Shown in pieces: positions 6,376 through 33,119 of a DNA stretch of 64,000 nt; position 1 is the first letter of the stretch, and each line of letters begins with the position of its first letter. Both the position numbers and the translations under genes were made by a program. The notes under the pieces are model-generated. The model saw nothing but the letters and a program-made list of their open reading frames with translations, was not told where the DNA came from and did no database searches. Source of the stretch: an uncultured Dehalococcoidia bacterium (GTDB lineage Bacteria; Chloroflexota; Dehalococcoidia; DSTF01; RBG-16-68-14); assembly GCA_964406605.1 (NCBI GenBank), contig CAYOSF010000014.1, positions 5,095 to 69,094 of the forward strand, in the 5' to 3' direction.

Positions 6376-9162
6376 CTAGCGCTCGGCACTCTCCATGCGG
6401 TCCCGCTCGCCCTCGAAGGGCTCACAGGAGACGTTGACGCAGCGGTCGAAAGGCACCGGCTGCCACTCGATGGGACTGTGGTAGAGGTGCCCGTAGTCTC
6501 CCGCCAGGTGCAGCCACTTCACCATGCCGGGCTCGACCTCGTTGGAGCCGTTGCCGCCCGGGAACAGGAAACCCTCGAAACCGTTGTAGACCGTGAGAGC
6601 GTCGGGACGCTGTGCGGGGCTGGTGCGAGCGGGCGCCACGAACTCGCCTACGTCGTTCCAGACCCGCACCAGCGCATCGTCAGCGATCCCGCTGTTGCGT
6701 GCGACGGCATCGTTGATCAGCACGAAGGGCTTGCCGCGATGCGTCTCCATCATCAACGGATTGGTCATGTTCATAGCATGGATGCTCCAGCGGGCGTGGC
6801 CGCCGGAGAGACGGAACGGGTGGTTGCCGCCCATCGAGGGTGGCTCCTTGTGACACGGCAGATCCTCCCCGGCTTCCCGGTACCAGGGGTGGTCGATCAG
6901 GAACTGGGCACGCCGGGTGAGCGTCGGATAAGGGTGACCCAGTTCGATGTGGTTGCGCAACGGTGAGTGCGTCTCGTTTCGCGGGAACGGAGAGGCGTTA
7001 GCCCTCAGCAGGGCGATGAAGGCCCAGTCATTGTAGTGGCTGTAGCCCTTCTCACGGAAGGTCTCGAGCGTGGTTCCAGGCGGCATGTTACCGAAAGCCA
7101 CCGAATCCGCGAGCATTTCCCGGGCGACGCTCTCACCGTCGATGAGCGTTCCCTTGAGCGTGAAGAGGTCCCACAGCTCGTCGTAGCGGCGCCATCCCCC
7201 GCTGCGGTGCTGGAAGCCCTCCAGACCGCGCTCTTTGGCCCGCTCGGCGATCTTCTTCAGGAGCCCACCGAGCGCCTCCCACTCGCCCCGGGACTCTCCG
7301 TAGGGCGGCACCACGGCATGAGACATGGACAGGATGAAGGGCCAGGGCGTCGGCATGCTGAAGGCGGCCTTCTCGTAGTGCTGAGTGGCGGGCAGCACGA
7401 TGTCTGCGTAGAGCGCCGTCTGCGACATGCGGTAGTCCATGCACACGATCTTGGTCAGCTTTGGCCAGAGATTGCGGAGCAGGGCGTTCTTGCCGCCCCG
7501 CGTCCGCCGGAGCGTGTTGCCCCCTACCTCGAGCAGTACACGCGGCGGCTTGGTGGCGGCGATCTCGGCCGCCGGGTCCCAGGCCCTCGACCCCACTGCC
7601 TCCTGATAGTACTGATCGAAGTCGCGCGGCATGCTCGCGTCGCTCCAGTCGCGGTTGTTCCAACGCTCGCGATAGCCGGCGTGCGTGTACCAGAAGAAGG
7701 CCGGCGGTAGCATCATGCCGCTGCCAACGGTGCGCATGATCACGCGGTCTGCCAGTTCACCGGTCAGAGTGGGATCCTGCTCTATCAACTGCTCGCGGAC
7801 AACCTGGGCACCTTTCCGCAGCGCCTTTCCCGCCTCGACACCGGCTTCGGTCTTGGCCATCGCTATCGAGCCGCCGTCGAACATGAACGAACACCAGCTA
7901 CCCACGCCGGCGCCCTTCTTGCCCCAGTTCCCGGTCAGCCCAAAGAGCAGCAGAATGGCCCGGTCCATGAGGTCACCGTGGTAGTACTTGGAGATGCCCA
8001 CCCCGACGCTCAAGCGGGTCTTTCGGGACGCCATCTTGCGCGCGAGCAGCCGAATGGCGTCGGGGTGTGCCTCGCAGATCTCGCTGGCTCGCTCCGGTGT
8101 GTAGTGCGCGTCCAGCATGCGTCGGAGACGCGCGAACAACGGTTCGACGGGGATCCGCCCGGCGTCGAGTGTCTCGACTTCCACTGTTCCCTCTGCAAGG
8201 GGCTCAAAATCCAGCAACAGATTGGCGGGATCGGCCGGAACCACACCCCTTTCGGGATGAAACTGGTAGAAGCGGTCGTCACGCCCATCCCGTTCGACGT
8301 GACCCTGGCGCAGGTACTGCCCGGTGTCGGTGCGGACCAGCAGCGAGAGATCGGTCTGCGAGGCGGCGAAGCTCCAGTCCACCAGTCCCTCGGATATGAC
8401 GACCTGGCAGGCGGCCAGAGCCAGGGCGGCATCGGTGCCGTGGCGCACCGGGATGTGGTAGTCGACATGGCTGTGCGAGGGGCTCACGTCCGTGGAGATC
8501 AGGAAGACTTCCGCGCCTCGGTATCGCGCCTCGGTCATGTAGTGGAACCACGGGACGTTCGTATACGCAGGGTTCGAGTGCCAGATCAGAATGAGATCGG
8601 AGTGGAAGGTGTCGTCGTTGGAATGCGCGAAGGAGGACTTGCCGAAGGTCTGCTGATAGCCGGCGTGGAAGTCATTGATGGTGGCGTTCACGTCCAAGAC
8701 CTGTCCGCCAAGAACGCCCACGAAGCGCGAGCTCGGCCCGGTGGTCACGATCTGGGGACTCAGCTCGTGCACGAGGGACTCGGGGCCGACCTCCTCGATG
8801 GCGTCGACGATGGCGTCGGCAACCTCGGTCAGCGCCGCGTCCCAGGAGATGCGTTCCCAGCGCCCCTCGCCGCGCTCACCGGCGCGGCGCAGCGGGTACT
8901 TGATCCGATCCGGCGCCTCCATCTCCAGACTCCAGGCCAGCCCCTTCTGACAGATCATCGGGTTCATGTCGGGGACGCCGGACTCGACCTGCTCGCGCAC
9001 GCCCGCGGCCTCCTCCCGCACCACCCTGCCATCCTTGACCAGCACGTAGATCGGGCAGTCTCCCGGCACACAGTTCACGCAGTGGGTGCCGAAATGCGCC
9101 TCGTCCCACTCCTGTTCGACACGGCTGCGCTGGCGCTCCTCCGTCCGGTTTGGGCGGCTCAT
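6376..9162 (-). CDS. Type II DMSO-reductase-family molybdoenzyme alpha subunit (EbdA/S25dA-like), paralog 1
   Basis: FS0 motif GTHCVNCVPGDC...NPMICQKG, Mo-ligand region DVNATINDF, KYYHGDL, GNWGKKG, YPTLTRRAQF, GHARWSIH. ATGA overlap with the beta-subunit stop; no twin-Arg leader. Confidence 0.93.
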   Translation of the reverse strand: MSRPNRTEERQRSRVEQEWDEAHFGTHCVNCVPGDCPIYVLVKDGRVVREEAAGVREQVESGVPDMNPMICQKGLAWSLEMEAPDRIKYPLRRAGERGEGRWERISWDAALTEVADAIVDAIEEVGPESLVHELSPQIVTTGPSSRFVGVLGGQVLDVNATINDFHAGYQQTFGKSSFAHSNDDTFHSDLILIWHSNPAYTNVPWFHYMTEARYRGAEVFLISTDVSPSHSHVDYHIPVRHGTDAALALAACQVVISEGLVDWSFAASQTDLSLLVRTDTGQYLRQGHVERDGRDDRFYQFHPERGVVPADPANLLLDFEPLAEGTVEVETLDAGRIPVEPLFARLRRMLDAHYTPERASEICEAHPDAIRLLARKMASRKTRLSVGVGISKYYHGDLMDRAILLLFGLTGNWGKKGAGVGSWCSFMFDGGSIAMAKTEAGVEAGKALRKGAQVVREQLIEQDPTLTGELADRVIMRTVGSGMMLPPAFFWYTHAGYRERWNNRDWSDASMPRDFDQYYQEAVGSRAWDPAAEIAATKPPRVLLEVGGNTLRRTRGGKNALLRNLWPKLTKIVCMDYRMSQTALYADIVLPATQHYEKAAFSMPTPWPFILSMSHAVVPPYGESRGEWEALGGLLKKIAERAKERGLEGFQHRSGGWRRYDELWDLFTLKGTLIDGESVAREMLADSVAFGNMPPGTTLETFREKGYSHYNDWAFIALLRANASPFPRNETHSPLRNHIELGHPYPTLTRRAQFLIDHPWYREAGEDLPCHKEPPSMGGNHPFRLSGGHARWSIHAMNMTNPLMMETHRGKPFVLINDAVARNSGIADDALVRVWNDVGEFVAPARTSPAQRPDALTVYNGFEGFLFPGGNGSNEVEPGMVKWLHLAGDYGHLYHSPIEWQPVPFDRCVNVSCEPFEGERDRMESAER

Positions 9163-10220
9163 GGCTGCTTTGCTCTTGCGGCCTCTACGACGGCGGGCTC
9201 CTTCCCGAAGGGGCCGAAGAGCGTCTTCCACTGATAGACGATCAGCGTGTCGAGCAGCTCCGAGCTGCCTCCGCCACGCGCCCGCTCGATCTCGCGGCGC
9301 AGCGTCGCCAGCGCCTCGTGCACGCCCGGCCCGAACAGCGACTCCAGATACTCCGGCGGGATGCGCATGGTCTCGGTATCGATCGAGCGGTCATCGCGCA
9401 GCCGGTAAGGCGAGAGGGGAGGTACATAGAAGACGTTGGGCTCGGTACCGACCTCCGGGTGGAGGGGCAGGGCGACCTTCCACTCGTACACCAGCCTGTG
9501 GATCGGGCCGCCCTCGTCGCCGAGCACGCCCACGAAGACGCACCGGCCCGGACAGTTTCGCGCGCAGACCGGGGCCACTCCCTCCTCGAGCCGTGGGAAA
9601 CAGAGATTGCAGTGCTGCGCCACGCCCCGCGCCTGGTTGAAGTAGACCTTCTTGTAGGGACACCCCCGCATGCACTCTCGCGACCCCTGGCAGAGGTCCT
9701 CGTCGCGGAGCACGATCCCGTCCTCCTCGCGCTTGTACATCGCCCCCGACGGACAGGCCTCGACACAGGCCGGGCGCGCGCAGTGGTTGCAGATGCGTGG
9801 CAGGTAGAAGAAGTAGGCGTTCGGGAACTCGCCCCCACCTTGGTCCTCGTCCCAGTTCGGACCCCAGGTGGGCGGACCGCCCTCGGCGGTGGTGGGCTTC
9901 AGGTGCACGGACTGGGCCTTGCCCCCAAAGAACACTTCCTCCTTGTTGAACTGCCAGCCGCCTCCGAACTCCTCCAGCGTCGGTTCGCGTCCCAGCACCA
10001 GCTCGCCGCCGCGATAGCCGCCTCCCATCTGCTCCCAGTCCCGCGGCGCGCCGCGACCGGGCATGGTGTTGACCGTGCACCACCACTGGTGCGCCTCGCC
10101 CTCCTCACGGGTCCAGAGCATCTTGCAGGCCACGCTGCAACTCTGGCATCCCATGCACTTGTTCAGGTCAAAGACCATCGCCACCTGGTTCGGCCTGCTT
10201 GCGGGCATTGTGGTGGTCAC
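9159..10220 (-). CDS. Fe-S beta subunit (NarH/EbdB-like) of the molybdoenzyme
   Basis: MVFDLNKCMGCQSCSVACK, YLPRICNHCARPACVEACP, CPYKKVYFN, CNLCFPR, LPLHPEVGTEPNVFYVPP. GTG start overlaps the TetR TGA. Confidence 0.93.
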   Translation of the reverse strand: MTTTMPASRPNQVAMVFDLNKCMGCQSCSVACKMLWTREEGEAHQWWCTVNTMPGRGAPRDWEQMGGGYRGGELVLGREPTLEEFGGGWQFNKEEVFFGGKAQSVHLKPTTAEGGPPTWGPNWDEDQGGGEFPNAYFFYLPRICNHCARPACVEACPSGAMYKREEDGIVLRDEDLCQGSRECMRGCPYKKVYFNQARGVAQHCNLCFPRLEEGVAPVCARNCPGRCVFVGVLGDEGGPIHRLVYEWKVALPLHPEVGTEPNVFYVPPLSPYRLRDDRSIDTETMRIPPEYLESLFGPGVHEALATLRREIERARGGGSSELLDTLIVYQWKTLFGPFGKEPAVVEAARAKQP

Positions 10221-10921
10221 CGCGCCCGCCCCTCGCTCGACCGCTCTCCCAGTCGGGGGTGTGCTCCGGTGGGACGCACCGTCGCACCCTCGTACACGGG
10301 CAGAGGCCGTCTGGCGATCTCGGCCGCTTCCTCCTCCGGCAGGCCAAGCAACCGCAGCAGGTTCCGAGCCAGCAGGCAATCCGCGTCGTCCGGCACTTCG
10401 CCCTTCAGCCGGGCCTGCATCACGCCGAGTATGGCTCCCGCGATCATGGCGAGCGTCGTTACCTCGTTGTCGCTGATGAAGCGGCCCGTGCTCAGCCCGA
10501 GACCCAGGTCTCGCAGCAGACGGTGGCCGAGCGCCGACCATAGCTCCTGGATGTAGATACCAGCACGCACGACGAACGAGCCCCAGACTGGGTCGTCGTC
10601 GACCATCCGGATGGTGAGCCGCGCGCTCGCGGCGAACACTTCGGCCACGTCGGTCATGTCCGCGGTCAGCCGGTCCAGGATCTGTCCGTGGGTCTCCACG
10701 GTCTCACTGACCACCGCCTGAAACAGATCCTCCCTCGAGTCGAAGTGGTTGTAGAAGGAGCCCACGCCGACATCGGCTTCCTCAGTTATCTCGCTGATCG
10801 GCACGGCCTCTATCGTCCCCCGGGAAGCGATGATCCGTCGCGCGGCAGCGACAAGGCGCCCCCGCGTCTCCCGACGCCGGCGTGCGCCGCGATCCATTCT
10901 CGCAACTGCTATCTGGGTCAT
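10217..10921 (-). CDS. TetR/AcrR family transcriptional regulator
   Basis: RRRRETRGRLVAAA...ISEITEEADVGVGSFYNHFDSREDL HTH; first gene of the operon. Confidence 0.93.
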   Translation of the reverse strand: MTQIAVARMDRGARRRRETRGRLVAAARRIIASRGTIEAVPISEITEEADVGVGSFYNHFDSREDLFQAVVSETVETHGQILDRLTADMTDVAEVFAASARLTIRMVDDDPVWGSFVVRAGIYIQELWSALGHRLLRDLGLGLSTGRFISDNEVTTLAMIAGAILGVMQARLKGEVPDDADCLLARNLLRLLGLPEEEAAEIARRPLPVYEGATVRPTGAHPRLGERSSEGRAR

Positions 10922-10947
10922 GCTCCTGCTCCGGTGCAGTCGACGGT

Positions 10948-10976
10948 ATTGTGACGGAATCTTCAAATATGTGCAA
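10948..10976 (-). promoter_or_regulatory. Sigma70-like promoter with overlapping imperfect palindrome (candidate TetR operator)
   Basis: Minus strand TTGCAC-N17-CACAAT. TGACG-GAAT-CTTCA (10952-10965) is one mismatch from a perfect palindrome. Confidence 0.5.
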
Positions 10977-11210
10977 GGCGTCATTTCTCGGTCGCTTCGG
11001 GATGACACGAGGGATCGGACTGGGACCAGAGGGCATCGATGGCCGGCTGCGACTTGTCGTTACTGGATGATGGGAGCCAGACGGGGCGGCATCACGCGGA
11101 ACGTCCATCGGCTGCCGTCTCGTTGATCCTCTCGCTCTCGCCCCCAATAATGGCAGGAACAAGGATGGCTGATGCGCCAAAAGGCGCCGACGAGCGAGGA
11201 AAGCACGACG

Positions 11211-12935
11211 ATGACGACGAAGAACTACTGGCGCCGGTTTCAGCATGAGCGCATCTCGCGGAGGCGCCTGCTGCGTGCGGCGGGCACCGGCGCGGCCGGG
11301 CTGACGGTGGCGGCAGCCTGCGGCGGGGGCGACGGAGACGGCAACAAGACTCCGGCGGGGGGCGGGACCCCCACGACGGGCGCGACGCCTGCGGCCGGGA
11401 CGCCCAAGCGCGGTGGTCGCTACAAGGCCCCGACGCCCGTCGATTGGGGAACGCTCGACCCAGCGACCAGTGTCGGCGGGTTCACCGCCATAGCCGCCCG
11501 CATCTACAATGGGCTACTCGACCGGTCCAGGACGAACCCTGATTGGTGGTTCTTCGACCTGGCGGAGACGATGGAGCAGCCCGACGACGAGAACTATATC
11601 TTCAACCTACGTACGGGCGTCAAGATCGCCCCCAACGACTACGGCATCGAGGAACGGGATATGGATGCTTTCGACGCCAAGGTCTGGCAGGACCGCATCG
11701 CCGAGGACGAAGGCGCCGGGCTGCGCTCCTTCACTGAGCCGTGGCTGAACTCGTACGAGGCGTCCGAGGCGCAGACCTTCATCTTGAAGAGCACCGGCCC
11801 CTACGCCTACTTCACCTTCCACACCGGCCCTCCCGGCGGCGGCTCGATCCCACCGCGCGAGTTCTGGGAGCGGGGAGTGAGCCTTGCCGACGGCGGTGTT
11901 GGAGGGGGCCCCTACACTATCCAGCCCGACTCCTATCAGGAGACCGGCGGCATCAGCCTGGACCGCAACCCCAACTACTACCGCACCGACGAGAACAACG
12001 ACAACGCGCAGCTCCCCTACTGGGACGGGATAGACGTCGCCCGCATCACCGACCGTCTGGCGAGGCGGACCGCCTTCCAGGACGCTCAGATCTATCAGTA
12101 CGGCGCTGCGGACAAGGCCGAGCGGGACGAGCTTCTCCGGCAGAAGCCCGACTACTTCGTCATCGAAGAGCCGATCAACACCTTCATCTCATTCACCATG
12201 AACCCCACGCGATCGCCCTGGGACGACGAGCGGATCCGCAAGGCGGCCAACTTCGCTCTCAACCGGCAGGAGTTCGCCGACCGCATCTTCGGTGAGGGCG
12301 GAGCGAAGCCGGACGGGCTGGTGCACTGGCCGATGGGCGCCTTCGCGCTCGATCCAGCGGAGCTGGAGGAGCTCCAGCCCTACGATCCTCAGCGCGCGCG
12401 AGATCTGATCAAGGACGCGACCGGGGAGGACACGATCAAGATCAAGGTCATGTACCCGACCGGCGTGGACATCTTCTTCCACGCCGAGCACCTGCCCATC
12501 TGGCAACAGCAGATGCGGAATGCGGGCTTCGAGTTGGACGAGGAGGCGCTGGACTTTGGCTCGTGGCTGAGCCGGTACACGACGGTTGACTACGACTCGT
12601 CGTTGGCGCTCAACCAAATCTATGAGCTTGCCGACGGCGCGTTGAAATGGCAGCACTCCCTGGGGCCGCAGGGCAACGGCAACTACGGTATCGGCATCGG
12701 AAAATTCTACCCGGAGATAGACGATGCGATCCAGAACTCGAAGCAGACCGCTGATCTGGATGTGGCAGCCGAGCGGGTGCGGGAGGTGCAGCGCCTCTGC
12801 TACGAGAAGGGGCCGGCTTTCCTCCCGATTGTGAGCTGGATCGAATACTCGATGGGCCAGCCCTTCGTCAAGAATGTCACCCCGGGCCTGGGGAACGCGG
12901 GACAGTACCTCAACGACATGTGGCTGGACCTGTAG
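11211..12935 (+). CDS. ABC transporter substrate-binding protein (family 5, OppA/DppA-like), Tat-exported lipoprotein
   Basis: SRRRLLRAAG twin-Arg leader, AAACGGG lipobox, PKRGG, TLDP, NPNYY, PWDDERIRKAANFALNRQ. Confidence 0.9.
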   Translation: MTTKNYWRRFQHERISRRRLLRAAGTGAAGLTVAAACGGGDGDGNKTPAGGGTPTTGATPAAGTPKRGGRYKAPTPVDWGTLDPATSVGGFTAIAARIYNGLLDRSRTNPDWWFFDLAETMEQPDDENYIFNLRTGVKIAPNDYGIEERDMDAFDAKVWQDRIAEDEGAGLRSFTEPWLNSYEASEAQTFILKSTGPYAYFTFHTGPPGGGSIPPREFWERGVSLADGGVGGGPYTIQPDSYQETGGISLDRNPNYYRTDENNDNAQLPYWDGIDVARITDRLARRTAFQDAQIYQYGAADKAERDELLRQKPDYFVIEEPINTFISFTMNPTRSPWDDERIRKAANFALNRQEFADRIFGEGGAKPDGLVHWPMGAFALDPAELEELQPYDPQRARDLIKDATGEDTIKIKVMYPTGVDIFFHAEHLPIWQQQMRNAGFELDEEALDFGSWLSRYTTVDYDSSLALNQIYELADGALKWQHSLGPQGNGNYGIGIGKFYPEIDDAIQNSKQTADLDVAAERVREVQRLCYEKGPAFLPIVSWIEYSMGQPFVKNVTPGLGNAGQYLNDMWLDL

Positions 12936-13006: not shown

Positions 13007-13975
13007 TTACCCGGCGCCCGTCCCGCAGTCGTGGCGGTACGAGTCTATCACGTGAAGAATATCGTCAACGAGGATCTGCCCGCTCGGTGGACCCAGCCTC
13101 CACGGCTCCTTTGCCGTCTCCGGGATGGCGGTCCGGTCGTACTTCTCGTCGTAGCCCGGGTCACCCTCTCGCAGGAAGTAGTGGTTCACCAGAAGCAGCA
13201 CGTCGTCGATGCGATTCTTCCCGTCGTTCGTCGGGTTGAAGTAGTCCCACGGGTTGTGCGGGTCACGTCGGCCGCCGAGTTTCTCGTCGAAGCCATTCTC
13301 ATTCACGTCCGGGCAGCCATCGTTGTCGTCGTCCGGATCGGCGCTGTTGGGCACCGTATCCCCGTCCGTATCGCCGTCCGGCGCCTTGGTGGGCATCGGC
13401 GTGGCCGTGGGTCTCGGCGTCCCATCCTCGCACTTGATGACCAGCACATCCGGACCGGACTCTACCTGGGTCGATCCCTTGTCGTCGATGACCAGCGTGT
13501 CAGCTGTGGAGTGTGTCAGGCTGACGCTACCATCTGCATCACATCTGAAGCTGCCTGTCGCGACGACCCCCGTGTACGTGGAGAAGGGTTCGCCAATGCC
13601 GATCGAGCAGCCCACCGACTCCCAATCAGGGCCGTAAGCATTCGCACAAAACAGGCCGTCCGGCCACACCATGTCAATCAGGCCGTTGGGCGTCACACCG
13701 TCGTAGGCAACGGTAACAGCCACGGCTTCGTATGCCCCATTCGGCAGAGCCGAGACACCCTCGAGAATCACCTTGACAGTGAAGTCCGTATCCACAGGGA
13801 TGTAGCACTTGTCGTAGCCGCGGGAGGTGTCACAATCCCCGACGGCTATCGAGAAGTCCACGGCCTCCGTTTGGGCCTCGATGGCGCTCCTGTGTCCCCA
13901 GGTGAAGACCACCACAACCATCACAGCAACGGCCATCACCGCGCCCAGAACCACCAGGTTTCGTCGCGATCGCAT
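13007..13975 (-). CDS. Secreted surface protein with C-terminal Ca-binding dockerin-like (flexitail-type) domain
   Basis: Signal peptide, beta-rich domain, PTATP linker, DTDGDTVPNSADPDDDNDGCPD, GGRRDPHNPWDYFNPTNDGKNRIDD, GPPSGQILVDDIL..HDC. Confidence 0.7.
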   Translation of the reverse strand: MRSRRNLVVLGAVMAVAVMVVVVFTWGHRSAIEAQTEAVDFSIAVGDCDTSRGYDKCYIPVDTDFTVKVILEGVSALPNGAYEAVAVTVAYDGVTPNGLIDMVWPDGLFCANAYGPDWESVGCSIGIGEPFSTYTGVVATGSFRCDADGSVSLTHSTADTLVIDDKGSTQVESGPDVLVIKCEDGTPRPTATPMPTKAPDGDTDGDTVPNSADPDDDNDGCPDVNENGFDEKLGGRRDPHNPWDYFNPTNDGKNRIDDVLLLVNHYFLREGDPGYDEKYDRTAIPETAKEPWRLGPPSGQILVDDILHVIDSYRHDCGTGAG

Positions 13976-14168
13976 GCCACACCTCCCGCCTGCGGTCGGT
14001 GATGGGCTGCCCGCCGTGCGGGACACGCGCCCGCCACTGACCACCAGCTCCGTACGCGGCGATCCTAGCGTGCCAGGGACGGCTTGTCAACAAGCACTTG
14101 TTGCCTACCGGCACAGCTCGTAACGGCAGCCTCGAGGCCGAAGCCTGTGGCTATAGGACAGGATGGCG

Positions 14169-16025
14169 TCACACCACCGCCGGCTCGGCCGTACCGGTAC
14201 CGAATTGGCGCATGAACAGCTCATAGTACCGCCCGCGCGCGGCCATCAGCTCGTCGTGGTTGCCCTGCTCCACCATCACGCCACTCTCTAGGAAGTAGAT
14301 GCGGTCCACGTTGCGGATGGTCGAGAGGCGGTGCGCGACGATGAAGACCGTGCGGCCCTCCATCAGCTCGGCCAGACCATCCAGGAAGTCCGCCTCGGTA
14401 TGGAGGTCGAGGGCGGATGTCGGCTCATCGAGCAGCAGGATCGGCGCGTCCTTGAGGAACGCCCTCGCGATCGAAATGCGCTGCTGCTGCCCAACGGAGA
14501 GCTTGACGCCGCGTTCGCCCACTTCGGTCTCGTACTTGGCAGGCAACTCCTGGACGAACGCGTCGGCGCGAGCCGCCCGGGCCGCCGCCTCAACCGCTTC
14601 CGCACTCGCGTCGAGACGCCCATAGAGGATGTTCTCGCGTACCGTCGCCGAGAAGAGCAACGGCTCCTGCGGCACCATGCTCACCAGGTCACGCAGCGAC
14701 GCGATCTTCAGCCGCCGGACGTCCACATCGTCTATCTCGACCGAGCCGCCCGTGACGTCGTAGAGTCGCGGCATGAGGTTGAGGATCGTCGTCTTGCCGG
14801 AGCCGGTCTCCCCGACAATGGCGATCTTCTCGCCCTTGCGCGCCTCGAAATCGATGCGCTCCAGCACGGGCCGGCCGGCATCGTACTCGAACCGCACCTG
14901 CCGGAAAGCGACGCCGCGCTCCAGGGCGGGCTTCTCGACGGCGTCCGGCGCCTCCCGGATGTCCGGCGTCTCGTCCAGCACCTGGAACGCCCGCCCAACA
15001 CCGACAACAGCGTCCTGGAACGGGCCGTAAACGAACATGATCTGGTTCATCATCTGGTAGATGCTCTGCATGTAGGTGACGAAGACCCATAGAGCCCCTA
15101 CCGTGAGCGGTCCGTCGACGACCCGGTAGGCCGCGAAGAGGAGCACCGATGCCGTACCCAGCCCCGTGATCGCCACGGTGGCCACGTTCAGCACCTGCTC
15201 CGCAAGGCGGAAGCGCAACTGGGCCCGCACGAAGTTCATGCTTGTTCCCGCGAAGCGCTCCCGCTCCCGGCCCTCGCGACCGAAGACCTGCACCGCACGG
15301 ATTGCACCCATCGTCTGCTCGATGAGCGAGGTCAGGCGGCTCATGTGTTCCCGGCTCTCCTGCGAGGCACGCTGGATGCGGCCGGTCAGCCGGTGGATCG
15401 CGAAGAATAGCAACGGCAGCACGCCGAGCGAAACGATGGTGAGCCACGGGTCCAGCAGCAGCATGAGCGCGATCATCACCAGCAGCCGGAAGATCAGCGC
15501 CGACCACGTCTGGACGCCGAAGATCATCACTTCCTGGATGCCGCGGGCGTCGTTGATGGCGCGCCAGATGCTGTCGCCGACCGATTGGCCGGAGTGGTAG
15601 CGAAGCGACAGCGTCCGCATGTGCCCGACGATCCGCGAACGGAGCGTGTGGATCATCAAGAGCGCCGTCCGCGCGATGACGTAATAGCTGCCGGCGTTGA
15701 TCAGCACCCCACCGACCGTGATCGCGAGATACGTCGCCGCCAGCCAGCCCGCTGCCACGAACTTCTCTCTGTTCGTCTGGGTGACCACCTCGCCCAGCGG
15801 CCCCAGGTCCAGCCGGTCGCTGGCAAGCACGCCGTCTATGAGAAACTTGATCGGCCATGGCATGAAGGCGACCAACAGCGAGCCGCACATCAGCAGCACC
15901 ACGCTCAACCCGACGCCGCCACGGAACTCCCCGATGTACGAGATGATCCGGCGGTAGACGTGGGCGACCGGCGCCTCCGTCCCTTCTGGGCCGAGCGGCG
16001 CGTTCGGATCGAACAGGCGAGTCAC
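14169..16025 (-). CDS. ABC exporter, fused permease/ATPase (MsbA-like)
   Basis: About 6 TM segments, GETGSGKT, LSVGQQQRISIARA, LLLDEPTSALD. Confidence 0.95.
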   Translation of the reverse strand: MTRLFDPNAPLGPEGTEAPVAHVYRRIISYIGEFRGGVGLSVVLLMCGSLLVAFMPWPIKFLIDGVLASDRLDLGPLGEVVTQTNREKFVAAGWLAATYLAITVGGVLINAGSYYVIARTALLMIHTLRSRIVGHMRTLSLRYHSGQSVGDSIWRAINDARGIQEVMIFGVQTWSALIFRLLVMIALMLLLDPWLTIVSLGVLPLLFFAIHRLTGRIQRASQESREHMSRLTSLIEQTMGAIRAVQVFGREGRERERFAGTSMNFVRAQLRFRLAEQVLNVATVAITGLGTASVLLFAAYRVVDGPLTVGALWVFVTYMQSIYQMMNQIMFVYGPFQDAVVGVGRAFQVLDETPDIREAPDAVEKPALERGVAFRQVRFEYDAGRPVLERIDFEARKGEKIAIVGETGSGKTTILNLMPRLYDVTGGSVEIDDVDVRRLKIASLRDLVSMVPQEPLLFSATVRENILYGRLDASAEAVEAAARAARADAFVQELPAKYETEVGERGVKLSVGQQQRISIARAFLKDAPILLLDEPTSALDLHTEADFLDGLAELMEGRTVFIVAHRLSTIRNVDRIYFLESGVMVEQGNHDELMAARGRYYELFMRQFGTGTAEPAVV

Positions 16026-16029
16026 AGCG

Positions 16030-17241: not shown

Positions 17242-17259
17242 TTACCTCCCAGGAAACCT

Positions 17260-17290
17260 GCGAGCCCGCCTCCTCAGGAAGCGGGCTCGC
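17260..17290 (-). terminator. 14-bp GC-rich hairpin between the leader ORF and the GNAT-like gene (weak U-tract)
   Basis: Minus strand GCGAGCCCGCTTCC-TGA-GGAGGCGGGCTCGC followed by AGGTTT. Confidence 0.5.
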
Positions 17291-17314
17291 GCAATCTACT
17301 CTATGTAACTTCCG

Positions 17315-17410
17315 TCAGAAACGCCCGCTTCGTCCCCAGTCGCCACCGCTCCGGCCGCATGGAACCAGCAACCGTGGGCGTGGGTGGGAGTACCTTGAGC
17401 CATCTGCCAT
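17315..17410 (-). CDS. Candidate 31-aa leader or precursor peptide MADGSRYSHPRPRLLVPCGRSGGDWGRSGRF
   Basis: GAGG SD 7 nt before ATG, directly downstream of a TTGACG-N17-TAGGAT promoter; below the ORF-track cutoff. Confidence 0.45.
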   Translation of the reverse strand: MADGSRYSHPRPRLLVPCGRSGGDWGRSGRF

Positions 17411-17436
17411 ATCGATACCTCTTAGCGTGCTCCACT

Positions 17437-20363: not shown

Positions 20364-20699
20364 CTCGCCTCCTCTCAAGCCACCGGCGGCCCGTCTCCGA
20401 TGCCACGCACTCCGCCGGCGTGGCGCGATGACGGCCCAAGGGTAGTGATTTTGCTCTGCGGCGTCAAACGGCGCGAACGATGAAGCGGCAGGCGGCATAC
20501 GGCCAGACATCACGCCGAGTGCCGCCCATATCAAAGCGAAACCCCGTTGCCGGCACGCTGGCTGGATGAGCTCGCGCGCCACGGATGCCGGCCTTCTAAC
20601 GCATTTGCCCGCTGGTCGAGCGCCTGCTATAGCACTCGCAGACCCCATTCAGCCTCGCCATTGACCGCGTTGGTGGGGCAGGGGTACCCCACGAAAGGA

Positions 20700-22013
20700 G
20701 TGCAGCTGCTCTTCGGCAAGGCCTCGCGCCCCGGCCGGCCGGCAGGAAGGAACCGGCCGTTCTACGGCTGGGTCATCGTCGGCGTGGCGGTGATCGTATC
20801 TTTATGTCAAGTCAGCTTCTTCAATCCAGTCCTCGGTGTCTTCTTCGAGCCGCTGAGCAAGGAGTTCGGCTGGAACCGGGCCACCATGTCGGCGGCCATC
20901 ACCATCGGCAGCATCGGCGGGGCGGTCATTTCCCCCCTGATCGGACGGATCATCGACCGCTGGGGCTCGCGGCTGGTGGTGGCCTTCGGCAGCGCGCTCT
21001 GGGGGGTCTGCCTCCTGGCCCTGGCATTCACGCCGGCTCTGTGGTGGTTCTACCTCTTCTACGGTGCGGGCCGGACGACGGCGACGGGGGCCACCAGCCT
21101 GGGAACGACCGTCACCGTGTCGAATTGGTTCGTCAGGAACCGTGGATTCGCTCTCGGAGTCATGCTCCTGGGCAATCGCGCCGGCATGGCCCTCCTGCCC
21201 CTGGCGGTGCAGCTCGTTCTGCTGGTGTCGAGCTGGCGGACTGCCTGGGCAATGATGGCCATCATGGTCCTGTCCCTATCTGTGCTGCCCAGCCTGCGGT
21301 TCCTTCGCCGCCGTCCCGAAGACATGGGCCTGCTGCCGGACGGCGCGGCCAGTGAGGCCGAAGCGGCCGAGATGTCCGTGGCGACCGCCGCCGAATCGGA
21401 GGAGCAGTGGACCCTGCGGGAGGCGCTCCGGACGCCCGCCCTGTGGTTGCTCACGCTGGCCACTTCCCAGATATTCATGGTGGGGGCCGCCATCAACCTC
21501 CACCAGATGCCCCATCTGGTAGACCAGGGTCTGTCCTCGACCCTGGCCGTGGGAGTGGTGAGCACGTTCGCGGTCTTCGGGGGCATCGGGGGCCTGCTCG
21601 GCGGGGTGGTGCAGCGCCGCCTTGGCGCCCGGTGGACCCTGGCGGCCTCTCTGGCAGCCGCGGCCTCGGGCATCGTGCTGCTGATCCACGCGGACAACCC
21701 AGGGCTCGCCTATCTGTACGGCGTCTGGTACGGGCTCGTGTTCGGGTCGGTCGTCACCATGATGCAGGTGGTGTACGCGGAGTACTTCGGCCGCGACTCC
21801 CTGGGCAGCATCCGAGGGGCGGTGGCGCCCATTCAGATGACCTTCAACGCCACTGGACCGCTGCTCGCAGGCTGGGCCTTCGACGTCGCGGGAGACTACA
21901 CGCGGATCTTCTGGATCTACGCGGGATTGCTGCTCCTTGCGTCGTTCTGGATGGTCATTGCGCGACGGCCCCGGCGGCCTGTCGCAGAGTCTGATGTAAG
22001 TCGAGGAAGCTGA
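20700..22013 (+). CDS. MFS transporter (OFA/MCT-like)
   Basis: FYGWVIV, GRIIDRWGSR motif A, NWFVRNRGFALG, EYFGRDSLGSIRG, about 12 TMs; GTG start after AAGGA. Confidence 0.9.
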   Translation: MQLLFGKASRPGRPAGRNRPFYGWVIVGVAVIVSLCQVSFFNPVLGVFFEPLSKEFGWNRATMSAAITIGSIGGAVISPLIGRIIDRWGSRLVVAFGSALWGVCLLALAFTPALWWFYLFYGAGRTTATGATSLGTTVTVSNWFVRNRGFALGVMLLGNRAGMALLPLAVQLVLLVSSWRTAWAMMAIMVLSLSVLPSLRFLRRRPEDMGLLPDGAASEAEAAEMSVATAAESEEQWTLREALRTPALWLLTLATSQIFMVGAAINLHQMPHLVDQGLSSTLAVGVVSTFAVFGGIGGLLGGVVQRRLGARWTLAASLAAAASGIVLLIHADNPGLAYLYGVWYGLVFGSVVTMMQVVYAEYFGRDSLGSIRGAVAPIQMTFNATGPLLAGWAFDVAGDYTRIFWIYAGLLLLASFWMVIARRPRRPVAESDVSRGS

Positions 22014-22384
22014 GCGCAGCCACAGCCTGCCGCCTCCCCAGCGAGCGGTGTGGTCCGGCGATGGCTGGACGCTTCTCCCTGCGGGCCACCAAAGTAAGGG
22101 TGAAAGCACAGCACCGCAGTGCGTGTTCAACGCTCAGCGCATATGAGCGAGCGGGGAAGGAGGCCATCCCGCAACGGCCAGGAGCCGGCACGCTGGGTCC
22201 CAAGCATGTGGCAGGACAGACACAGCAGGTGGTACCGTTCGTGAAAACAGACCCACTCGCCGACACCAAAGGCATCCGCGGAGGAGCCGCGCCGAAGAGA
22301 CACGGACCGCCGGAATGCTGTCAAGGTACGGAGCGATTCGACGCCAGGGGTAGAGACGCCGACACAGGGAGAAGGAGCCCCACG

Positions 22385-23416: not shown

Positions 23417-23496
23417 CCTGCCCCACGGCCCACAGGGTCGCCGTCCGTTGTACACTGGGGGCGTTCGCATCGGACGCAGCACAGAGGAGGACAGAG

Positions 23497-27018: not shown

Positions 27019-28374
27019 ATGAAACCTGAAGAACCCTCCGAGCCGGATAACTCCCTTTCAGCTGACGCCACCCGCTTGGCCATTCCTATCTCCGCGCGTC
27101 TGACAAGCGACGAGCAGTTCCGCGGATACCTGGAGACCTTGGTCTCCCTCTTGCAGCGCAGCCGCGACTCGCGGAATGACGCTCACGAACTGCTGGGAGT
27201 GCAGGTTGATATGGCGAACTTCCTCCTTTCCAGTCAGGAAGCACAAAAGCGGCTTGAGGCAGAACTGGACCGAACTCCCTCCCACGCATCGCGCGAACGG
27301 AAGGAGTTGAAGGTGCTGATTGGCGTCTGCAAGCGTCTCCAGGGAATCGTTAGGCAGATCGCGGACGGCATAGCGTGGCGTTCACTGGCCTACGACCGAC
27401 CCGTTCTCCACCTCCTCGCCTTGAAGCCACACACAGGTCACATGGATCGATCAACAGCGATCACGGAATTCGCGCAGGCGGAGACGCACGTAGCTAGGAC
27501 CAGCGACCGTGTGGTTCTGAACGACCTGACGAACTTCCTGCGATACGGTGACTTCACGTCGGTGGGCGCTGACGGTGTGAGGATTCATGAAGTGAAGGCT
27601 GGGCGGGGAGCAGCGAAGAGCGGGCGCGCGACCAGGCAGAAGCGGAGGACGGCGGAAGTTCTTGAGTTCATAGAGCGGGGATTCACCAGGACAGAGGAAG
27701 GGTTGCGACGAATAGTCCTCCTTGATACGCAGCCGGTTTCGCATCTAGCGGCCGTAAAGAGCCTCCTTCGGGCTGCGCGGGAAGATGGCGCAGCCGAGGC
27801 GAGACTTAGCGACTGCCTGGCGGTGCAGGTCTTCGAAACCAGCGTGATGGCTGACGAGTTCGACCGCCCAAGCGCGGAGCGTCGAGCCCGGATCCACAAC
27901 CCATTCGAGCACTCGAGGGACGCAAGAGTGTTTGACACTCTCAAGCTGTTCACTCGGTTCACCTGGAACGTTGCGCCGTATTCGGTGTTTCCCATTACGG
28001 CTGACGATTCCCTGGCCATCATGACGGGAAGGTTGTGGTTGATCAGCTACTTCAACCTAGGAAACCTAGTCCGGTGCCTACGGCGACGCAATCTCCTTGT
28101 CAAGCCACCGACAAAGGAAGGATACGCCAACCTGCGAGGTCTGTTGCCTGGACAAATCGCGCGACGCGAACTGGACAACCCCTTGATGGTCTCGCGCGGG
28201 CGGCCACACCCCGTCCTGAAGATCCCCATCGCGTCTCTGACTCGCCTCTTCTATGAGTTCCTGGATGAGGAATCGTTTGCGGATGGCATCGAGGAAGAGC
28301 TAGATCTCCCAGACATCGACGAGCCGACATTTCTTCACACGGCGTTCCGCGCAGAGGCGCAACTCTGGGACTAG
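27019..28374 (+). CDS. Hypothetical protein with coiled coil and PD-(D/E)XK-like motif
   Basis: Long ORF; NDLTNFLRYGDFTSVGADGVRIHEVKAG; more A/T-ending codons than the flanking genes. Confidence 0.65.
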   Translation: MKPEEPSEPDNSLSADATRLAIPISARLTSDEQFRGYLETLVSLLQRSRDSRNDAHELLGVQVDMANFLLSSQEAQKRLEAELDRTPSHASRERKELKVLIGVCKRLQGIVRQIADGIAWRSLAYDRPVLHLLALKPHTGHMDRSTAITEFAQAETHVARTSDRVVLNDLTNFLRYGDFTSVGADGVRIHEVKAGRGAAKSGRATRQKRRTAEVLEFIERGFTRTEEGLRRIVLLDTQPVSHLAAVKSLLRAAREDGAAEARLSDCLAVQVFETSVMADEFDRPSAERRARIHNPFEHSRDARVFDTLKLFTRFTWNVAPYSVFPITADDSLAIMTGRLWLISYFNLGNLVRCLRRRNLLVKPPTKEGYANLRGLLPGQIARRELDNPLMVSRGRPHPVLKIPIASLTRLFYEFLDEESFADGIEEELDLPDIDEPTFLHTAFRAEAQLWD

Positions 28375-30073: not shown

Positions 30074-30091
30074 GAGACACCTCGAAACGAC

Positions 30092-30332: not shown

Positions 30333-33119
30333 CTACCTCGCCCGCTCCACCTCGACGCGCACGGCGCGCTCGTTGGGGACCGGCTGCCACTCGAACGACC
30401 AATAGCGCAGGTGGCCGTAGCCGCCTGCGAAGCCCAGCCACTTCACCAGGCCCGGCTCCACGTCCTCGGCCCCCTGCCAGCGGGCGAACTGGTACGGCTC
30501 CCAGCCGTTGTACATCACCACCAGCCCCGGCGCGACGCCCGGCGCCAGCCGCGCGTGCACGCGGTACCGGCCGACATCGTTGTGAACGGTGACCGGGTCA
30601 TCGTCCGCTATGCCGCGGGCGACGGCGTCGCCCGGGTTCAGGAACACGAAGGGATGCCCTCGGTGGGTGGCGAGCATCAGCCGGTTCACCTGGTTGGTCG
30701 AGTGGCTGCTCCAGCGGTTGTGGCCGCTGATCAGCCGCAGCGGGTAGTCGCCTCCCTGTTCGGGCGGGGGCTTGTGGCAGGGCAGTTCCTCGCCCGCCTC
30801 CAGGAACCACGGATGCTCGATGTAGAACTGTGCCCGCCGCGACAGCGTCGGGTAAGGCTGTAGTCGCTCGACGTGGTTGCGGAACGGCGTCAGGGTCTCG
30901 TTCGGGGATGGGTCGGCGGCCTGCGTGAGCCCATAGGGCGAGATGCCCCAGGACAGGAATCGCATGAATCCGCGCTCTCGCATGGTCTCCATCGTCGTGC
31001 CGGGCGGCAGGTTACCGGCGACGACCGTGTCGGTCACCATCTCCTCGGCCACCTGCTCGGCGGTGAGGACGGCGCCGCCCTTGCTCAGCGACTGGAACAG
31101 GCCGGCGATGCGACGTGTCTGTCCCGACGCGTCGACGAACTCCTCGATCCCGCGGGCCGCGGCGCGCTCCTCGAGCTTCCGCGCAAGCGCCAGGGCGATC
31201 TCCCACTCGCTCTTCGACTCGCCCGCCGGCGGCACGGCGCGGTCGGAGAAAGTGATCCCCATCGACCGCGGCATCGGCATCTGGAACGACGCTTTCTCGT
31301 AATGCTGCGCCGCCGGCAGCACGACGTCCGAGTGCATCGCCGTAGTGGACATGCGCCAGTCGCCGGTGACGACCAGCTTCAGCTTGGGCCACAACTCCCT
31401 CAGCAGCAGCCGCTGGCCGCCGCGCGTCCGCCGCAGGAAGTTGCCGCCGCACTCAACGAGCACGCGGGGCTCCACGTCCGCCGCGGGCCGGGCCGACGGC
31501 CACCACCCCGACTCTTCGGCCTCCCGCACGTACTCGTCGAACGTCCGCTTCATCGACGGATCGGTCCACCGACGCCAGCGCTCCGCGTGGCCGGTGTGCC
31601 GGTGCCAGAAGAAGGCGGGAGGCGACGAGCCGCCGCCCTGCCCCAGGCGCTGCGACAGCTCGACGGATGCGATCTCGTCCGTCATCGTCGGATCCTCGGC
31701 CCGGATGGCATCGACCATCGCGCGGCGGGCGGCCAGGACTTGGCGGGCCGCCTCGGGGCCGGCGGCGGGCTTCATGCCGAATACGAACGCCCCGTCGAAG
31801 CCGGCCACCGCCCACTGGTGAAAGCCGGTCCCTTTGCGGCCCCAGTTGCCGGTGAGGCCCGCGAGGAGCGCGTAGGAGCGCTGGATCAGGTCGCCGTGGA
31901 AGTACTTGCCGGAGGTCAGTCCCAGCAGGAAATTCGTGCGCCGCGCCGCCACCTTCCTGGCCAGCGATCGCACGACGTCCGGGTGGACGCCGCACAGCTC
32001 GGGCGCGCGCTCCGGCGCGTAGTCCGCCAGCCGCTCGCGGAGCGCCTCGAACACAGGCCGCACCCGCACCGTCGACCCGTCCGCCAGCGTGACGTCCCGT
32101 TCTCCCTCCAGTGCCGGCTCGACTCCGTTCGTATCAAGCGTCCCGCGGGGCGCCTCCACCGGTCTTCCGGTCCGCTCGTCCAGCCAGTAGAGCTGCGCTC
32201 CGCTACCTCCGTCCTGCATGTCCGATGCTCTCAAGTATCGGCCCGTATCGCGGCGCAGGAGCAGCGGCAGATCGGTCTGGCGCAGGACGAACTCGGGGTC
32301 GAACAGCCCCTCGTCCAGCACGACGCGACACAGGCAGAGCGCAAGCGCCGCGTCACAGCCGGCCCGGACGGGCACGTACCGGTCGGCGTGTGTTGCCGAC
32401 GGCGAGCAGTCCGGCGCAATTGTCACCACCTCGCAGCCCTGATAGCGGGCCTCCGCGATGAAGTGGTACTGCGTGATCCAGGTGTAGACGGGGTTGGCGC
32501 AGGCGATAAGAATCAGCTCCGAGTGGAACCAGTCGTCCGCGCTGGCCATCGAGTTGAACTTGCCGAAGGTGAGGTAGAGACCGGGCCCAAAGTCGTTGAT
32601 GTTGGCGTTGACGTCGGTCTGCACCGCTCCCAGGTGCCCGAAGACAGAGCCGAACAACGTGGTCGCCAGGAGGCCGCCTTGGGCCGGCGTCCCCTCGTAG
32701 ATGATGGAATCCGGTCCCGCCTCTTGGAGCGCGTCCAGGAGGCCGTCCGCCACGACACTCAGGGCCTCGTCCCAGGACACCCGCCTCCAGCGGCCACCTC
32801 CCCGCTCTCCATCCCGGAGCAGCGGACACAGCACCCGCTCCGGCGCATCCAGCATCCGGCTCCAGGCGACGCCCTTCTGGCAGCCGCTGGGGTTCATGTC
32901 CGGCACGCCCTCCTCGACCGTGTCGAACACGCCGGACTGCTCCTCGCGGACGACCCGATCGCCCACGATGTACGCCTTGAACGGACACGCCTCCGGGTAG
33001 CAATCGACGCAGTGCGTCACCGAGGCGACGCGCTCCCACTTCCACATGTCGCGGTAGCGATCGAACGTCGTCCGCACGTCGACGGACTTCGATATTCGGG
33101 ATAGCTGTTTCTTGCTCAA
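30333..33119 (-). CDS. Type II DMSO-reductase-family molybdoenzyme alpha subunit (EbdA/S25dA-like), paralog 3, orphan
   Basis: VTHCVDCYPEAC...MNPSGCQKG, DVNANINDF, KYFHGDL, YPTLSRRAQFYIEH, GHNRWSSH. TTG start after GGAGG; no Tat motif. Confidence 0.93.
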   Translation of the reverse strand: MSKKQLSRISKSVDVRTTFDRYRDMWKWERVASVTHCVDCYPEACPFKAYIVGDRVVREEQSGVFDTVEEGVPDMNPSGCQKGVAWSRMLDAPERVLCPLLRDGERGGGRWRRVSWDEALSVVADGLLDALQEAGPDSIIYEGTPAQGGLLATTLFGSVFGHLGAVQTDVNANINDFGPGLYLTFGKFNSMASADDWFHSELILIACANPVYTWITQYHFIAEARYQGCEVVTIAPDCSPSATHADRYVPVRAGCDAALALCLCRVVLDEGLFDPEFVLRQTDLPLLLRRDTGRYLRASDMQDGGSGAQLYWLDERTGRPVEAPRGTLDTNGVEPALEGERDVTLADGSTVRVRPVFEALRERLADYAPERAPELCGVHPDVVRSLARKVAARRTNFLLGLTSGKYFHGDLIQRSYALLAGLTGNWGRKGTGFHQWAVAGFDGAFVFGMKPAAGPEAARQVLAARRAMVDAIRAEDPTMTDEIASVELSQRLGQGGGSSPPAFFWHRHTGHAERWRRWTDPSMKRTFDEYVREAEESGWWPSARPAADVEPRVLVECGGNFLRRTRGGQRLLLRELWPKLKLVVTGDWRMSTTAMHSDVVLPAAQHYEKASFQMPMPRSMGITFSDRAVPPAGESKSEWEIALALARKLEERAAARGIEEFVDASGQTRRIAGLFQSLSKGGAVLTAEQVAEEMVTDTVVAGNLPPGTTMETMRERGFMRFLSWGISPYGLTQAADPSPNETLTPFRNHVERLQPYPTLSRRAQFYIEHPWFLEAGEELPCHKPPPEQGGDYPLRLISGHNRWSSHSTNQVNRLMLATHRGHPFVFLNPGDAVARGIADDDPVTVHNDVGRYRVHARLAPGVAPGLVVMYNGWEPYQFARWQGAEDVEPGLVKWLGFAGGYGHLRYWSFEWQPVPNERAVRVEVERAR

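Follow-up and report, generated by a model that had tools for sequence, protein, structure and literature searches.

Three genes in a 64,000-nucleotide stretch of contig CAYOSF010000014.1 (assembly GCA_964406605.1, an uncultured Dehalococcoidia bacterium) encode molybdenum-containing catalytic subunits that resemble the alpha subunit of ethylbenzene dehydrogenase (EBDH), and none of them carries a twin-arginine translocation (Tat) leader. Only the first, alpha1, has a gene for an iron-sulphur (beta) subunit beside it, while alpha2 and alpha3 stand alone. A genome census found 15 alphas, four betas, two EB_dh-type heme b (gamma) subunits and one type II chaperone (delta). These findings suggest, with a probability of about 0.55, a cytoplasmic, modular family of hydroxylases of the EBDH/steroid C25 dehydrogenase (S25DH) type, in which the orphan alphas would borrow beta and gamma subunits encoded elsewhere in the genome. 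The stretch is referred to here as the window, and coordinates given without a contig number are window positions.

Leaderless catalytic subunits

The genes of the window that encode the enzyme subunits are:

6376..9162, minus strand: alpha1, 928 amino acids (aa), Tat-less EBDH-like catalytic subunit of the Mo-bisPGD (molybdenum bis(pyranopterin guanine dinucleotide)) type; TIGR03479 751 bits
9159..10208, minus strand: beta, 349 aa, predicted four-cluster iron-sulphur subunit; TIGR03478 447-448 bits
17511..20363, minus strand: alpha2, 950 aa, orphan Tat-less EBDH-like catalytic subunit; TIGR03479 873.5 bits
30333..33119, minus strand: alpha3, 928 aa from a TTG codon, orphan Tat-less EBDH-like catalytic subunit; TIGR03479 827.9 bits

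The three alphas contain the molybdopterin oxidoreductase and dinucleotide-binding domains (PF00384 and PF01568, both above cut-off). Their best NCBIfam model is TIGR03479 (type II DMSO reductase molybdopterin subunit), with all three scores under its cut-off of 984.75 bits, which is reached by none of the alphas of this genome (top score 970.3 bits); the matches begin only at profile positions 37-49, and the Tat part of the profile is unmatched. The second-best model is the EbdA equivalog NF042978, with 665.5, 809.9 and 756.1 bits for alpha1, alpha2 and alpha3 against a cut-off of 2000, and the three proteins are predicted to be relatives of EbdA, not orthologues. Among solved structures, alpha2 is best matched by the EBDH alpha chain (2ivf_A; 780 bits, E 3.2e-233, nearly full length), compared with 460 bits for perchlorate reductase (4ydd_A) and 160 bits for NarG. 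The window beta falls under the TIGR03478 cut-off of 480.7 bits, whereas the three other betas of the genome, to which it is 54-66% identical, pass it.

Pairwise identity among the three alphas is 47-53%. Alpha1 is the most divergent of the main-clade paralogues in the genome (43-48% identity to the others), its closest relative being a protein with 60% identity from an Actinomycetes metagenome-assembled genome (MAG). The nearest paralogue of alpha2 is encoded on contig 13 (C13:10688, 81-82% identity), and its orthologues are found at 76-78% identity in three Chloroflexota MAGs. Alpha3 has orthologues at 78-79% identity in two Chloroflexota MAGs, and these are Tat-less too.

The cofactor sites are largely those of EBDH. 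In the alignment of all 15 alphas of the genome, the four ligands of the [4Fe-4S] cluster FS0 (tested as His/Cys-x3-Cys-x3-4-Cys...Cys), the equivalent of Asp223, which is the Mo ligand of EBDH, and the equivalent of Lys450 are kept in every sequence; in the paralogue on contig 9, Cys replaces the FS0 His. The column aligned to EBDH His192 holds G, T, S or E and lies in a variable, gappy region. The 15 conserved Cys columns common to the four betas and ClrB are all present in the window beta, and the four Cys groups of TIGR03478 would serve three [4Fe-4S] clusters and one [3Fe-4S] cluster. Both gammas keep the equivalents of Met108 and Lys201, the heme ligands of EBDH gamma.

When read from the first possible start codon, the frames span 6376-9231, 17511-20648 and 30333-33161 for the alphas and 9159-10541 for the beta, but shorter starts are indicated in each case. 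The ATG of alpha1 (9162) overlaps the TGA stop codon of the beta as ATGA, so that the beta is predicted to be translationally coupled to alpha1; the beta itself starts at ATG 10208. AGGAGG precedes the ATG of alpha2 (20363) and GGAGG precedes TTG 33119, the most likely start of alpha3. The FS0 His follows these starts at distances of 26, 31 and 35 residues, in keeping with the first-pass annotation, which had described the three genes at these ends with short N-termini and no Tat leader; they are real, intact frames with coding evidence and Shine-Dalgarno or ATGA starts. The third-position G+C content (GC3) of the 95-codon in-frame extension upstream of alpha2 is 0.63, compared with 0.87 in the gene, and the extensions of alpha1 (0.49) and the beta (0.53) overlap the beta and TetR genes in another frame. 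By their GC3, the extensions do not look like coding sequence.

No twin-arginine motif followed by a hydrophobic region was found at any possible start of alpha1-3, and no 19-residue span in any alpha or beta of the window reaches membrane-helix hydrophobicity. Residue 12 of alpha2 aligns with chain residue 62 of 2ivf_A, so the N-terminus of alpha2 is about 50 residues shorter than that of EBDH. Leaders are absent from every beta and gamma of the genome. By contrast, Tat leaders are recognisable in this organism and the Tat system appears to be in use: the solute-binding protein (SBP) starting at 11211 has the clear twin-arginine leader that was noted earlier, of the lipoprotein type (ISRRRLLRAAGTGAAGLTVAAACGG), one alpha on contig 6, the only one of the 15, has the leader VTRRGFLKAATLG, the DmsA-like enzyme on contig 22 has the Tat motif RRRFLAAG, and TatC is present (220.5 bits). 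Beyond this genome, 71 loci were kept with 73 full-length alpha frames that include the N-terminal motif; they were fetched with alpha2 patterns and their numbers are not an estimate of prevalence. None of the 73 has a convincing Tat leader, the one match to the strict test and the one match to a loose regular expression both lying far upstream, outside the conserved N-terminus, in non-coding sequence.

Export by a hidden route, whether from starts missed further upstream or in the company of a Tat-bearing partner, is very improbable. The alpha2 extension does contain one hydrophobic stretch, FALIWAALGVMSG, and EBDH-type enzymes have beta and gamma subunits that are exported although they lack a signal. 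The stretch is not preceded by RR, however, the GC3 of the extension is low, and the extension is missing from the 82% paralogue and the 76-78% orthologues, whose frames close 61-71 codons before the FS0 motif. No beta or gamma supplies a leader, and the Tat-less state is a property of the whole clade (see below). The refutation foreseen in the first-pass annotation, true starts upstream that include a Tat motif, was not borne out. The absence of signals from the gammas was rejected as a sign of cytoplasmic location, the EBDH gamma chain aligning from residue 1 and being likewise signal-less. The cytoplasmic location put forward in the first-pass annotation is well supported by the lack of a leader in any frame extension, the leaderless orthologues, the single Tat-less clade and the use of Tat elsewhere in the organism, and the three enzymes are probably cytoplasmic.

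It is hardly credible that the solitary alphas are decaying, non-functional duplicates. There are many paralogues, some of them recent (73-82% identity), with no partner genes nearby, but their frames are full-length and free of internal stops, their GC3 is strongly coding (0.85-0.90), all cofactor ligands are kept and orthologues are conserved at 76-83% in other genomes.

Subunit census and clade structure

Searches of the genome (95% complete, 29 contigs) with TIGR03479 gave 19 matches, comprising the 15 full-length type II alphas, two pieces of the DmsA-like protein on contig 22 and two weak pieces of another molybdoenzyme on contig 12. Two of the betas are on contig 6, one is on contig 13 and one is in the window. 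The gammas are on contigs 6 and 13; they score 92 and 51.9 bits with PF09459, above cut-off, 164 and 145.5 bits with TIGR03477, under its cut-off of 169.85, and 128 and 92 bits against the EBDH gamma structure. There are two chaperones of the NarJ/TorD type, of which the one on contig 6 passes the type II cut-off (158.2 compared with 152.3 bits) and the other goes with the DmsA-like enzyme. Profile searches found no gamma or delta gene on the contig of the window. The absence of these subunits reported in the first-pass annotation thus holds for the contig, whereas the genome-wide count that it had proposed as a check located them elsewhere.

These partner genes lie in two hub clusters. The order in the contig-6 hub is gamma, beta, delta, a MobB-FmdE fusion, a Tat-less alpha, a second beta and the Tat-bearing alpha, and the contig-13 hub contains an alpha and beta pair, a further alpha (82% identical to alpha2) and a gamma. 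The MobB-FmdE fusion (C6:168905-170176), between the chaperone and an alpha, is a single-copy gene without counterparts among the 71 related loci; its MobB domain is that of molybdopterin guanine dinucleotide synthesis. Just upstream of the gamma-beta-delta genes (C6:162268-166442) are two paralogous FAD oxidoreductases of the CrtO/CrtI family and a small SCP2-like protein (weak match), a trio that is kept beside gamma-beta-delta-alpha in three Solirubrobacteraceae loci (L080, L082 and L094). Nitroreductase-family paralogues, 69-73% identical, are encoded at C13:13720-14589, directly downstream of the gamma on the same strand, and at C6:160001-160654. The contig-13 gene was rejected as a conserved partner, its counterparts in four related loci not being consistently beside the gamma.

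Other redox enzymes of the genome include the DmsA-like molybdoenzyme itself (C22:18047-23086), which has its own small iron-sulphur subunit and a TorD/NarJ-type chaperone and is probably a respiratory reductase that works outside the membrane. A nickel superoxide dismutase is encoded on contig 9. No heme-copper oxidase subunit I passes the Pfam cut-off in the genome (best 26.9 compared with 34.8 bits). A NarI-type anchor was considered and rejected; the two family matches are both on contig 1, far from any alpha.

A beta is encoded in cis with four of the 15 alphas and the other 11, including alpha2 and alpha3, are solitary. In the window the beta stands 5′ of alpha1, and the earlier observation that alpha1 alone has an adjoining beta is correct. 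Over their full length, the orphans are 50-80% identical to beta-linked paralogues. The modular family proposed in the first-pass annotation, in which interchangeable alphas would share a beta and use a different electron acceptor, fits the census and the same skew in relatives, but the window beta is not singled out as the partner of alpha2 or alpha3, because it is coupled to alpha1 and because the 82% paralogue of alpha2 clusters with another beta and a gamma on contig 13. A different electron route is not required either, since the genome encodes, away from the window, a type II chaperone and two gammas whose heme ligands are conserved.

Relatives of alpha2 are encoded in 577 stretches of species-representative genomes, the closest in Chloroflexota MAGs and further ones in Dehalococcoidia, Anaerolineae-type and Actinomycetota MAGs. 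An actinobacterial host, at first suggested by GT87, HisKA_3 and TetR matches in the window, was rejected because the nearest relatives are Chloroflexota/Dehalococcoidia MAGs. Alphas were found in 13 of 41 related genomes (40 and this one), at 3-16 matches per genome. Beta (2-6 matches) and gamma (1-4) accompany them in every one of the 13, always in smaller numbers than the alpha matches, and each of these genomes has exactly one alpha match that covers the TIGR03479 profile from position 1. That match is the Tat-bearing type in this genome, the Tat motif of such alphas having been checked only here and in one set of related proteins. In a class-wide sample of 150 other genomes, with five candidates per genome scored for alpha, the same five genomes have both alpha and beta and 145 have neither. 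The 120 best homologues of the Tat-bearing alpha carry generic names only.

Trees were constructed with FastTree from 105 rows (the 15 alphas of this genome, the contig-22 protein, the 73 frames of other genomes and 16 further homologous proteins) and with an IQ-TREE quick search from 58 rows, in which 25 of the 73 frames, spanning the clades, were kept, the other 48 and the contig-22 row were left out and ClrA and haloarchaeal NarG were added as outgroups. Alpha1-3 and 10 other alphas of this genome belong to a Tat-less main clade with a support of 100 in FastTree (90 rows) and 100 in the SH-like approximate likelihood ratio test (SH-aLRT) of IQ-TREE (42 rows). Its sister comprises 13 Tat-bearing rows, including the contig-6 alpha of this genome (94 in FastTree, 97 SH-aLRT in IQ-TREE). 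The Tat-less clade is spread over Chloroflexota and Actinomycetota. The outgroups ClrA and haloarchaeal NarG, both Tat-bearing, and the contig-9 alpha fall outside both clades. Because the outgroups carry Tat leaders and the Tat-less sequences form one clade, the trees point to one old loss of the leader followed by radiation, with a second loss in the contig-9 line; the rooting is provisional, since the outgroup branches are long and the outgroup join is weak (76).

The contig-9 alpha (C9:71696-74764), a Tat-less type II protein with 35-45% identity to the others, adjoins genes for the alpha and beta subunits of an electron transfer flavoprotein and a fusion of old yellow enzyme and pyridine-nucleotide-disulphide oxidoreductase. 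At one locus (L095), an alpha 80% identical to the alpha at C25:2211 of this genome is found in a MAG labelled Deltaproteobacteria, of the same isolate series as Chloroflexota MAGs, which represents either a recent transfer or a binning error.

Linkage to a beta follows the clades. Of the 73 alphas of other genomes, 31 have a same-strand beta within 1 kb, 32 lack one although at least 1.4 kb of sequence flanks them on either side, and 10 are undeterminable. The clade of the alpha at C6:60799 has a neighbouring beta in none of 12 determinable loci, that of C13:4938 has a beta upstream in eight of eight and the alpha2 subclade in two of three, and orphan status thus appears to be conserved by clade. 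A recurrent operon of gamma, beta, delta and a Tat-less alpha was found in Actinomycetota and Anaerolineae-type loci.

The main rival explanation is that the orphans (alpha2, alpha3 and nine others) work without a beta, with FS0 as the direct electron donor to a soluble carrier, for instance a ferredoxin or flavoprotein. Assimilatory nitrate reductase and formate dehydrogenase H are single-subunit examples from the wider family. The explanation is in line with the number of alphas lacking a neighbouring beta in this genome (11 of 15) and in others (32 of 73), with the clade lacking one at all 12 determinable loci and with neighbourhoods that differ from orphan to orphan. Set against it, betas are carried by all 17 other alpha-bearing genomes found, and by all five genomes that hold an alpha of the never-linked clade (3-4 betas elsewhere in each; one is apparently the same genome as one of the 17). 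In addition, the orthologues of some orphans are beta-linked elsewhere, as in the alpha2 subclade, the orphans retain FS0 and full-length similarity to beta-linked paralogues, and S25DH alphas provide a precedent for solitary genes whose products use beta-gamma in trans. Function without a beta is judged unlikely, and the sharing of beta and gamma subunits in trans is preferred.

Gene neighbourhoods and proposed function

The genes surrounding the alphas in the window are:

395..1627, minus strand: acyl-CoA dehydrogenase (PF00441, PF02770, PF02771)
1659..2711, minus strand: Zn-dependent alcohol dehydrogenase (PF08240 and PF00107)
2708..3445, minus strand: acetoacetate-decarboxylase-family protein (PF06314, 150 bits)
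3541..5664, minus strand: acyl-CoA ligase (PF00501 and PF13193; NF004808 493.9 bits and steroid-22-oyl-CoA synthetase model 236.9 bits, both under cut-off)
5127..6425, start probably near 6370, minus strand: SCPx-type thiolase/lipid-transfer protein, directly downstream of alpha1 (PF22691, PF00108; NF006102 324.6 bits, under cut-off)
10217..11008, minus strand: TetR-family regulator, directly upstream of the beta (PF00440 and PF21306)
11172..12935, probable start 11211, plus strand: family-5 solute-binding lipoprotein (PF00496; Tat leader ISRRRLLRAAG...AACGG)
14169-16025, minus strand: ABC exporter, downstream of alpha2
16030-17241, minus strand: 403-aa protein with faint GNAT resemblance, downstream of alpha2
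20547..22013, plus strand: major facilitator superfamily (MFS) transporter, divergent from alpha2 (PF07690)

The true start of the acyl-CoA ligase lies near 5130, and the listed frame is too long, because the family match starts at residue 185. The TetR, beta, alpha1, thiolase/lipid-transfer, acyl-CoA ligase, acetoacetate-decarboxylase-family, alcohol dehydrogenase and acyl-CoA dehydrogenase genes form a co-directional row, through which a hydroxylated product could plausibly be led to CoA-dependent cleavage. Transporter genes (family-5 SBPs, ABC permeases, MFS and MMPL) adjoin several alphas, as would fit a substrate that must enter the cell, and the contexts hint at hydrophobic, isoprenoid- or sterol-like substrates that are taken up.

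Family-5 solute-binding lipoproteins with Tat leaders are expanded in this genome, with 18 places including the window copy (62-75% identity or more). Beside alphas there are two copies at C6:60799, one together with two permeases on contig 19 and the one near the beta and alpha1 of the window. None of the window's 403-aa protein, ABC exporter, SBP and TetR gene has a counterpart in the 71 related loci, and each was rejected as a conserved partner of the orphans. Two further genes of the window encode proteins that lack Pfam matches: a 345-aa protein (13007-14044, minus strand) that begins with a membrane or signal segment and has Asp-rich repeats of a calcium-binding-like kind (DTDGDTVPNSADPDDDNDGCPD; no match at 1e-5), and a 451-aa frame between aminotransferase and ABC-F genes (27019-28374, plus strand; no match at E 0.01). 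Among sequencing runs, no RNA data set was listed for window positions 14001-24000; the only strong matches were two DNA runs from a single sediment-metagenome study, which may be the source sample.

A chemistry other than C-H hydroxylation, such as reduction of oxyanions, another oxo-transfer reduction or the oxidation of alcohols by cytoplasmic type II enzymes, is rather improbable. Type II enzymes do include nitrate, chlorate, perchlorate and selenate reductases, and such a role would agree with EbdA scores of 665-810 against the cut-off of 2000 and with the variable column at His192. The score against EBDH alpha is nevertheless far above those against PcrA and NarG, ClrA and haloarchaeal NarG are only 31-34% identical and lie outside both clades, and the context is one of lipid and CoA catabolism (thiolase/lipid-transfer protein, acyl-CoA ligase, acyl-CoA dehydrogenase, alcohol dehydrogenase, SCP2-like protein and CrtO/CrtI flavoenzymes). 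No chlorite dismutase, nitrite-handling or similar gene was found among the neighbourhoods scanned.

In the hydroxylase system favoured here, each alpha would bind Mo-bisPGD via the Asp ligand, hold the His/Cys3 cluster FS0 and most likely use water to hydroxylate a hydrophobic substrate at a C-H bond. From FS0, the two electrons would pass through the four beta clusters to the gamma heme b and on to a further acceptor. Chloroflexota are taken to have a single membrane, and the enzymes would stay in the cytoplasm because the alphas have no export signal. Alpha1 would be made with its own beta from the TetR-controlled operon, whose following genes would carry the oxidised product into CoA-dependent breakdown. 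The solitary alpha2 and alpha3 would assemble with beta and gamma subunits from the hub clusters on contigs 6 and 13, and would be matured by the single type II chaperone and the MobB-FmdE protein, both hub-encoded.

Several points weigh against this proposal. Alpha1-3 and the window beta all score under the NCBIfam cut-offs, and the column aligned to EBDH His192 varies, which leaves room for a different chemistry. As the trees contain no characterised EbdA, S25dA, CmdA or AhyA, it is by PDB scores only that the Tat-less clade is related to enzymes already studied. Function without a beta would equally predict the 32 of 73 unlinked alphas and a never-linked clade, and alpha and beta would co-occur at the level of genomes in any case, provided that no genome goes without a complete operon. 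For a high-potential heme b enzyme located in the cytoplasm, there is no obvious acceptor. A few further beta or gamma genes could also be missing from the assembly.

A broader proposal, more tentative than that for this genome, is that in single-membrane Chloroflexota and Actinomycetota, oxygen-independent hydroxylation is carried out by a combinatorial system in the cytoplasm. At least 10 interchangeable Mo subunits would work on two to four shared iron-sulphur/heme b modules that feed a cytoplasmic acceptor, and each subunit would be adapted to its own imported substrate of the isoprenoid, sterol or alkyl type. If this were true, water-dependent C-H hydroxylation inside the cell would be widespread as a means of breaking down recalcitrant lipids in sediments and soils. 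The family is large and its members have generic names only, and much of the degradation of sterols, hopanoids, carotenoids or hydrocarbons that proceeds without oxygen in sediments could lie concealed in it.

To our knowledge, the water-dependent C-H hydroxylation described to date takes place outside the cytoplasmic membrane and in no more than a few Proteobacteria. The literature searched on EBDH/S25DH-like enzymes, Chloroflexota and Dehalococcoidia, Tat and cytoplasmic location gave no description of a leaderless clade, a subject on which subscription reviews may bear. What the present window contributes is a census of the whole genome, a clade structure with a provisional root, the clade-by-clade status of orphans and co-occurrence counts. 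A leaderless clade in phyla taken to lack a periplasm raises the questions of where anaerobic C-H hydroxylation occurs, how a high-potential heme b enzyme is re-oxidised inside the cell and how one cell manages 15 catalytic subunits with four iron-sulphur partners and one chaperone. The enzymes are also of interest as regioselective hydroxylation catalysts; S25DH, according to the sections available of one study, has been used for 25-hydroxyvitamin D3 (PMC6016249).

Comparison with known systems

The chlorate reductase genes ClrABDC of Alicycliphilus denitrificans (plasmid pALIDE01) and the haloarchaeal pNarGH have the same four-subunit set, with an EB_dh-type gamma and a TorD/NarJ-type chaperone. 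They differ from the enzymes described here in sequence (31-34% identity), in having Tat leaders, in their position outside both clades and in being oxyanion reductases.

In NarGHI and the Nitrobacter-type nitrite oxidoreductase, the alpha-beta modules stay on the cytoplasmic side. Both are type II Mo-bisPGD enzymes and show that loss of export is compatible with the architecture (NarG, 160 bits). They differ in their distant sequence, in the NarI-type di-heme anchor that takes the place of an EB_dh gamma and in their nitrogen-oxyanion chemistry.

EBDH (EbdABC(D)) of Aromatoleum aromaticum (2IVF) is the closest solved structure for the alphas and gammas of this genome, and the beta and delta subunits are alike by family model. 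The shared features are the FS0 His/Cys3 ligands, the Asp Mo ligand, the Lys450 equivalent, the Met/Lys heme ligands and a signal-less gamma. In contrast to EBDH, the column aligned to His192 is variable, the scores are far under the EbdA equivalog cut-off and the alphas are leaderless, the N-terminus of EBDH alpha being some 50 residues longer. The gene order is also unlike that of EBDH, with beta-alpha in the window and gamma-beta-delta-alpha in the hubs and in relatives. A family survey, in its available part, lists EbdA, S25dA and CmdA as periplasmic (PMC10100899). Characterised enzymes of this type, the ethylbenzene, p-cymene and steroid C25 and C26 dehydrogenases, are described as periplasmic and Tat-exported in the accessible portions of that survey and of a second source (PMC10100899, PMC7411048).

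The closest parallel in organisation is the S25DH-type modular system, in which alphas likewise outnumber beta, gamma and delta and include solitary ones; the same skew is seen in 12 relatives of this genome. The lipid-type gene context also resembles that of S25DH and the steroid C26 dehydrogenase S26DH1. The published systems have Tat sequences and are assigned to the periplasm, as stated in the consulted passages of PMC7411048, whereas 14 of the 15 alphas described here are leaderless, the number of paralogues is about twice as high and the host belongs to the Chloroflexota and not to the Proteobacteria. Sterolibacterium denitrificans has eight alpha paralogues in one genome, several of them solitary; active complexes were obtained for each of its alpha1-4 by production with the same beta3-gamma3 and a single chaperone (PMC6016249, from the part of the article at hand). 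On that account, S25DH1-4 of S. denitrificans are a direct precedent for interchangeable alphas on a shared electron module.

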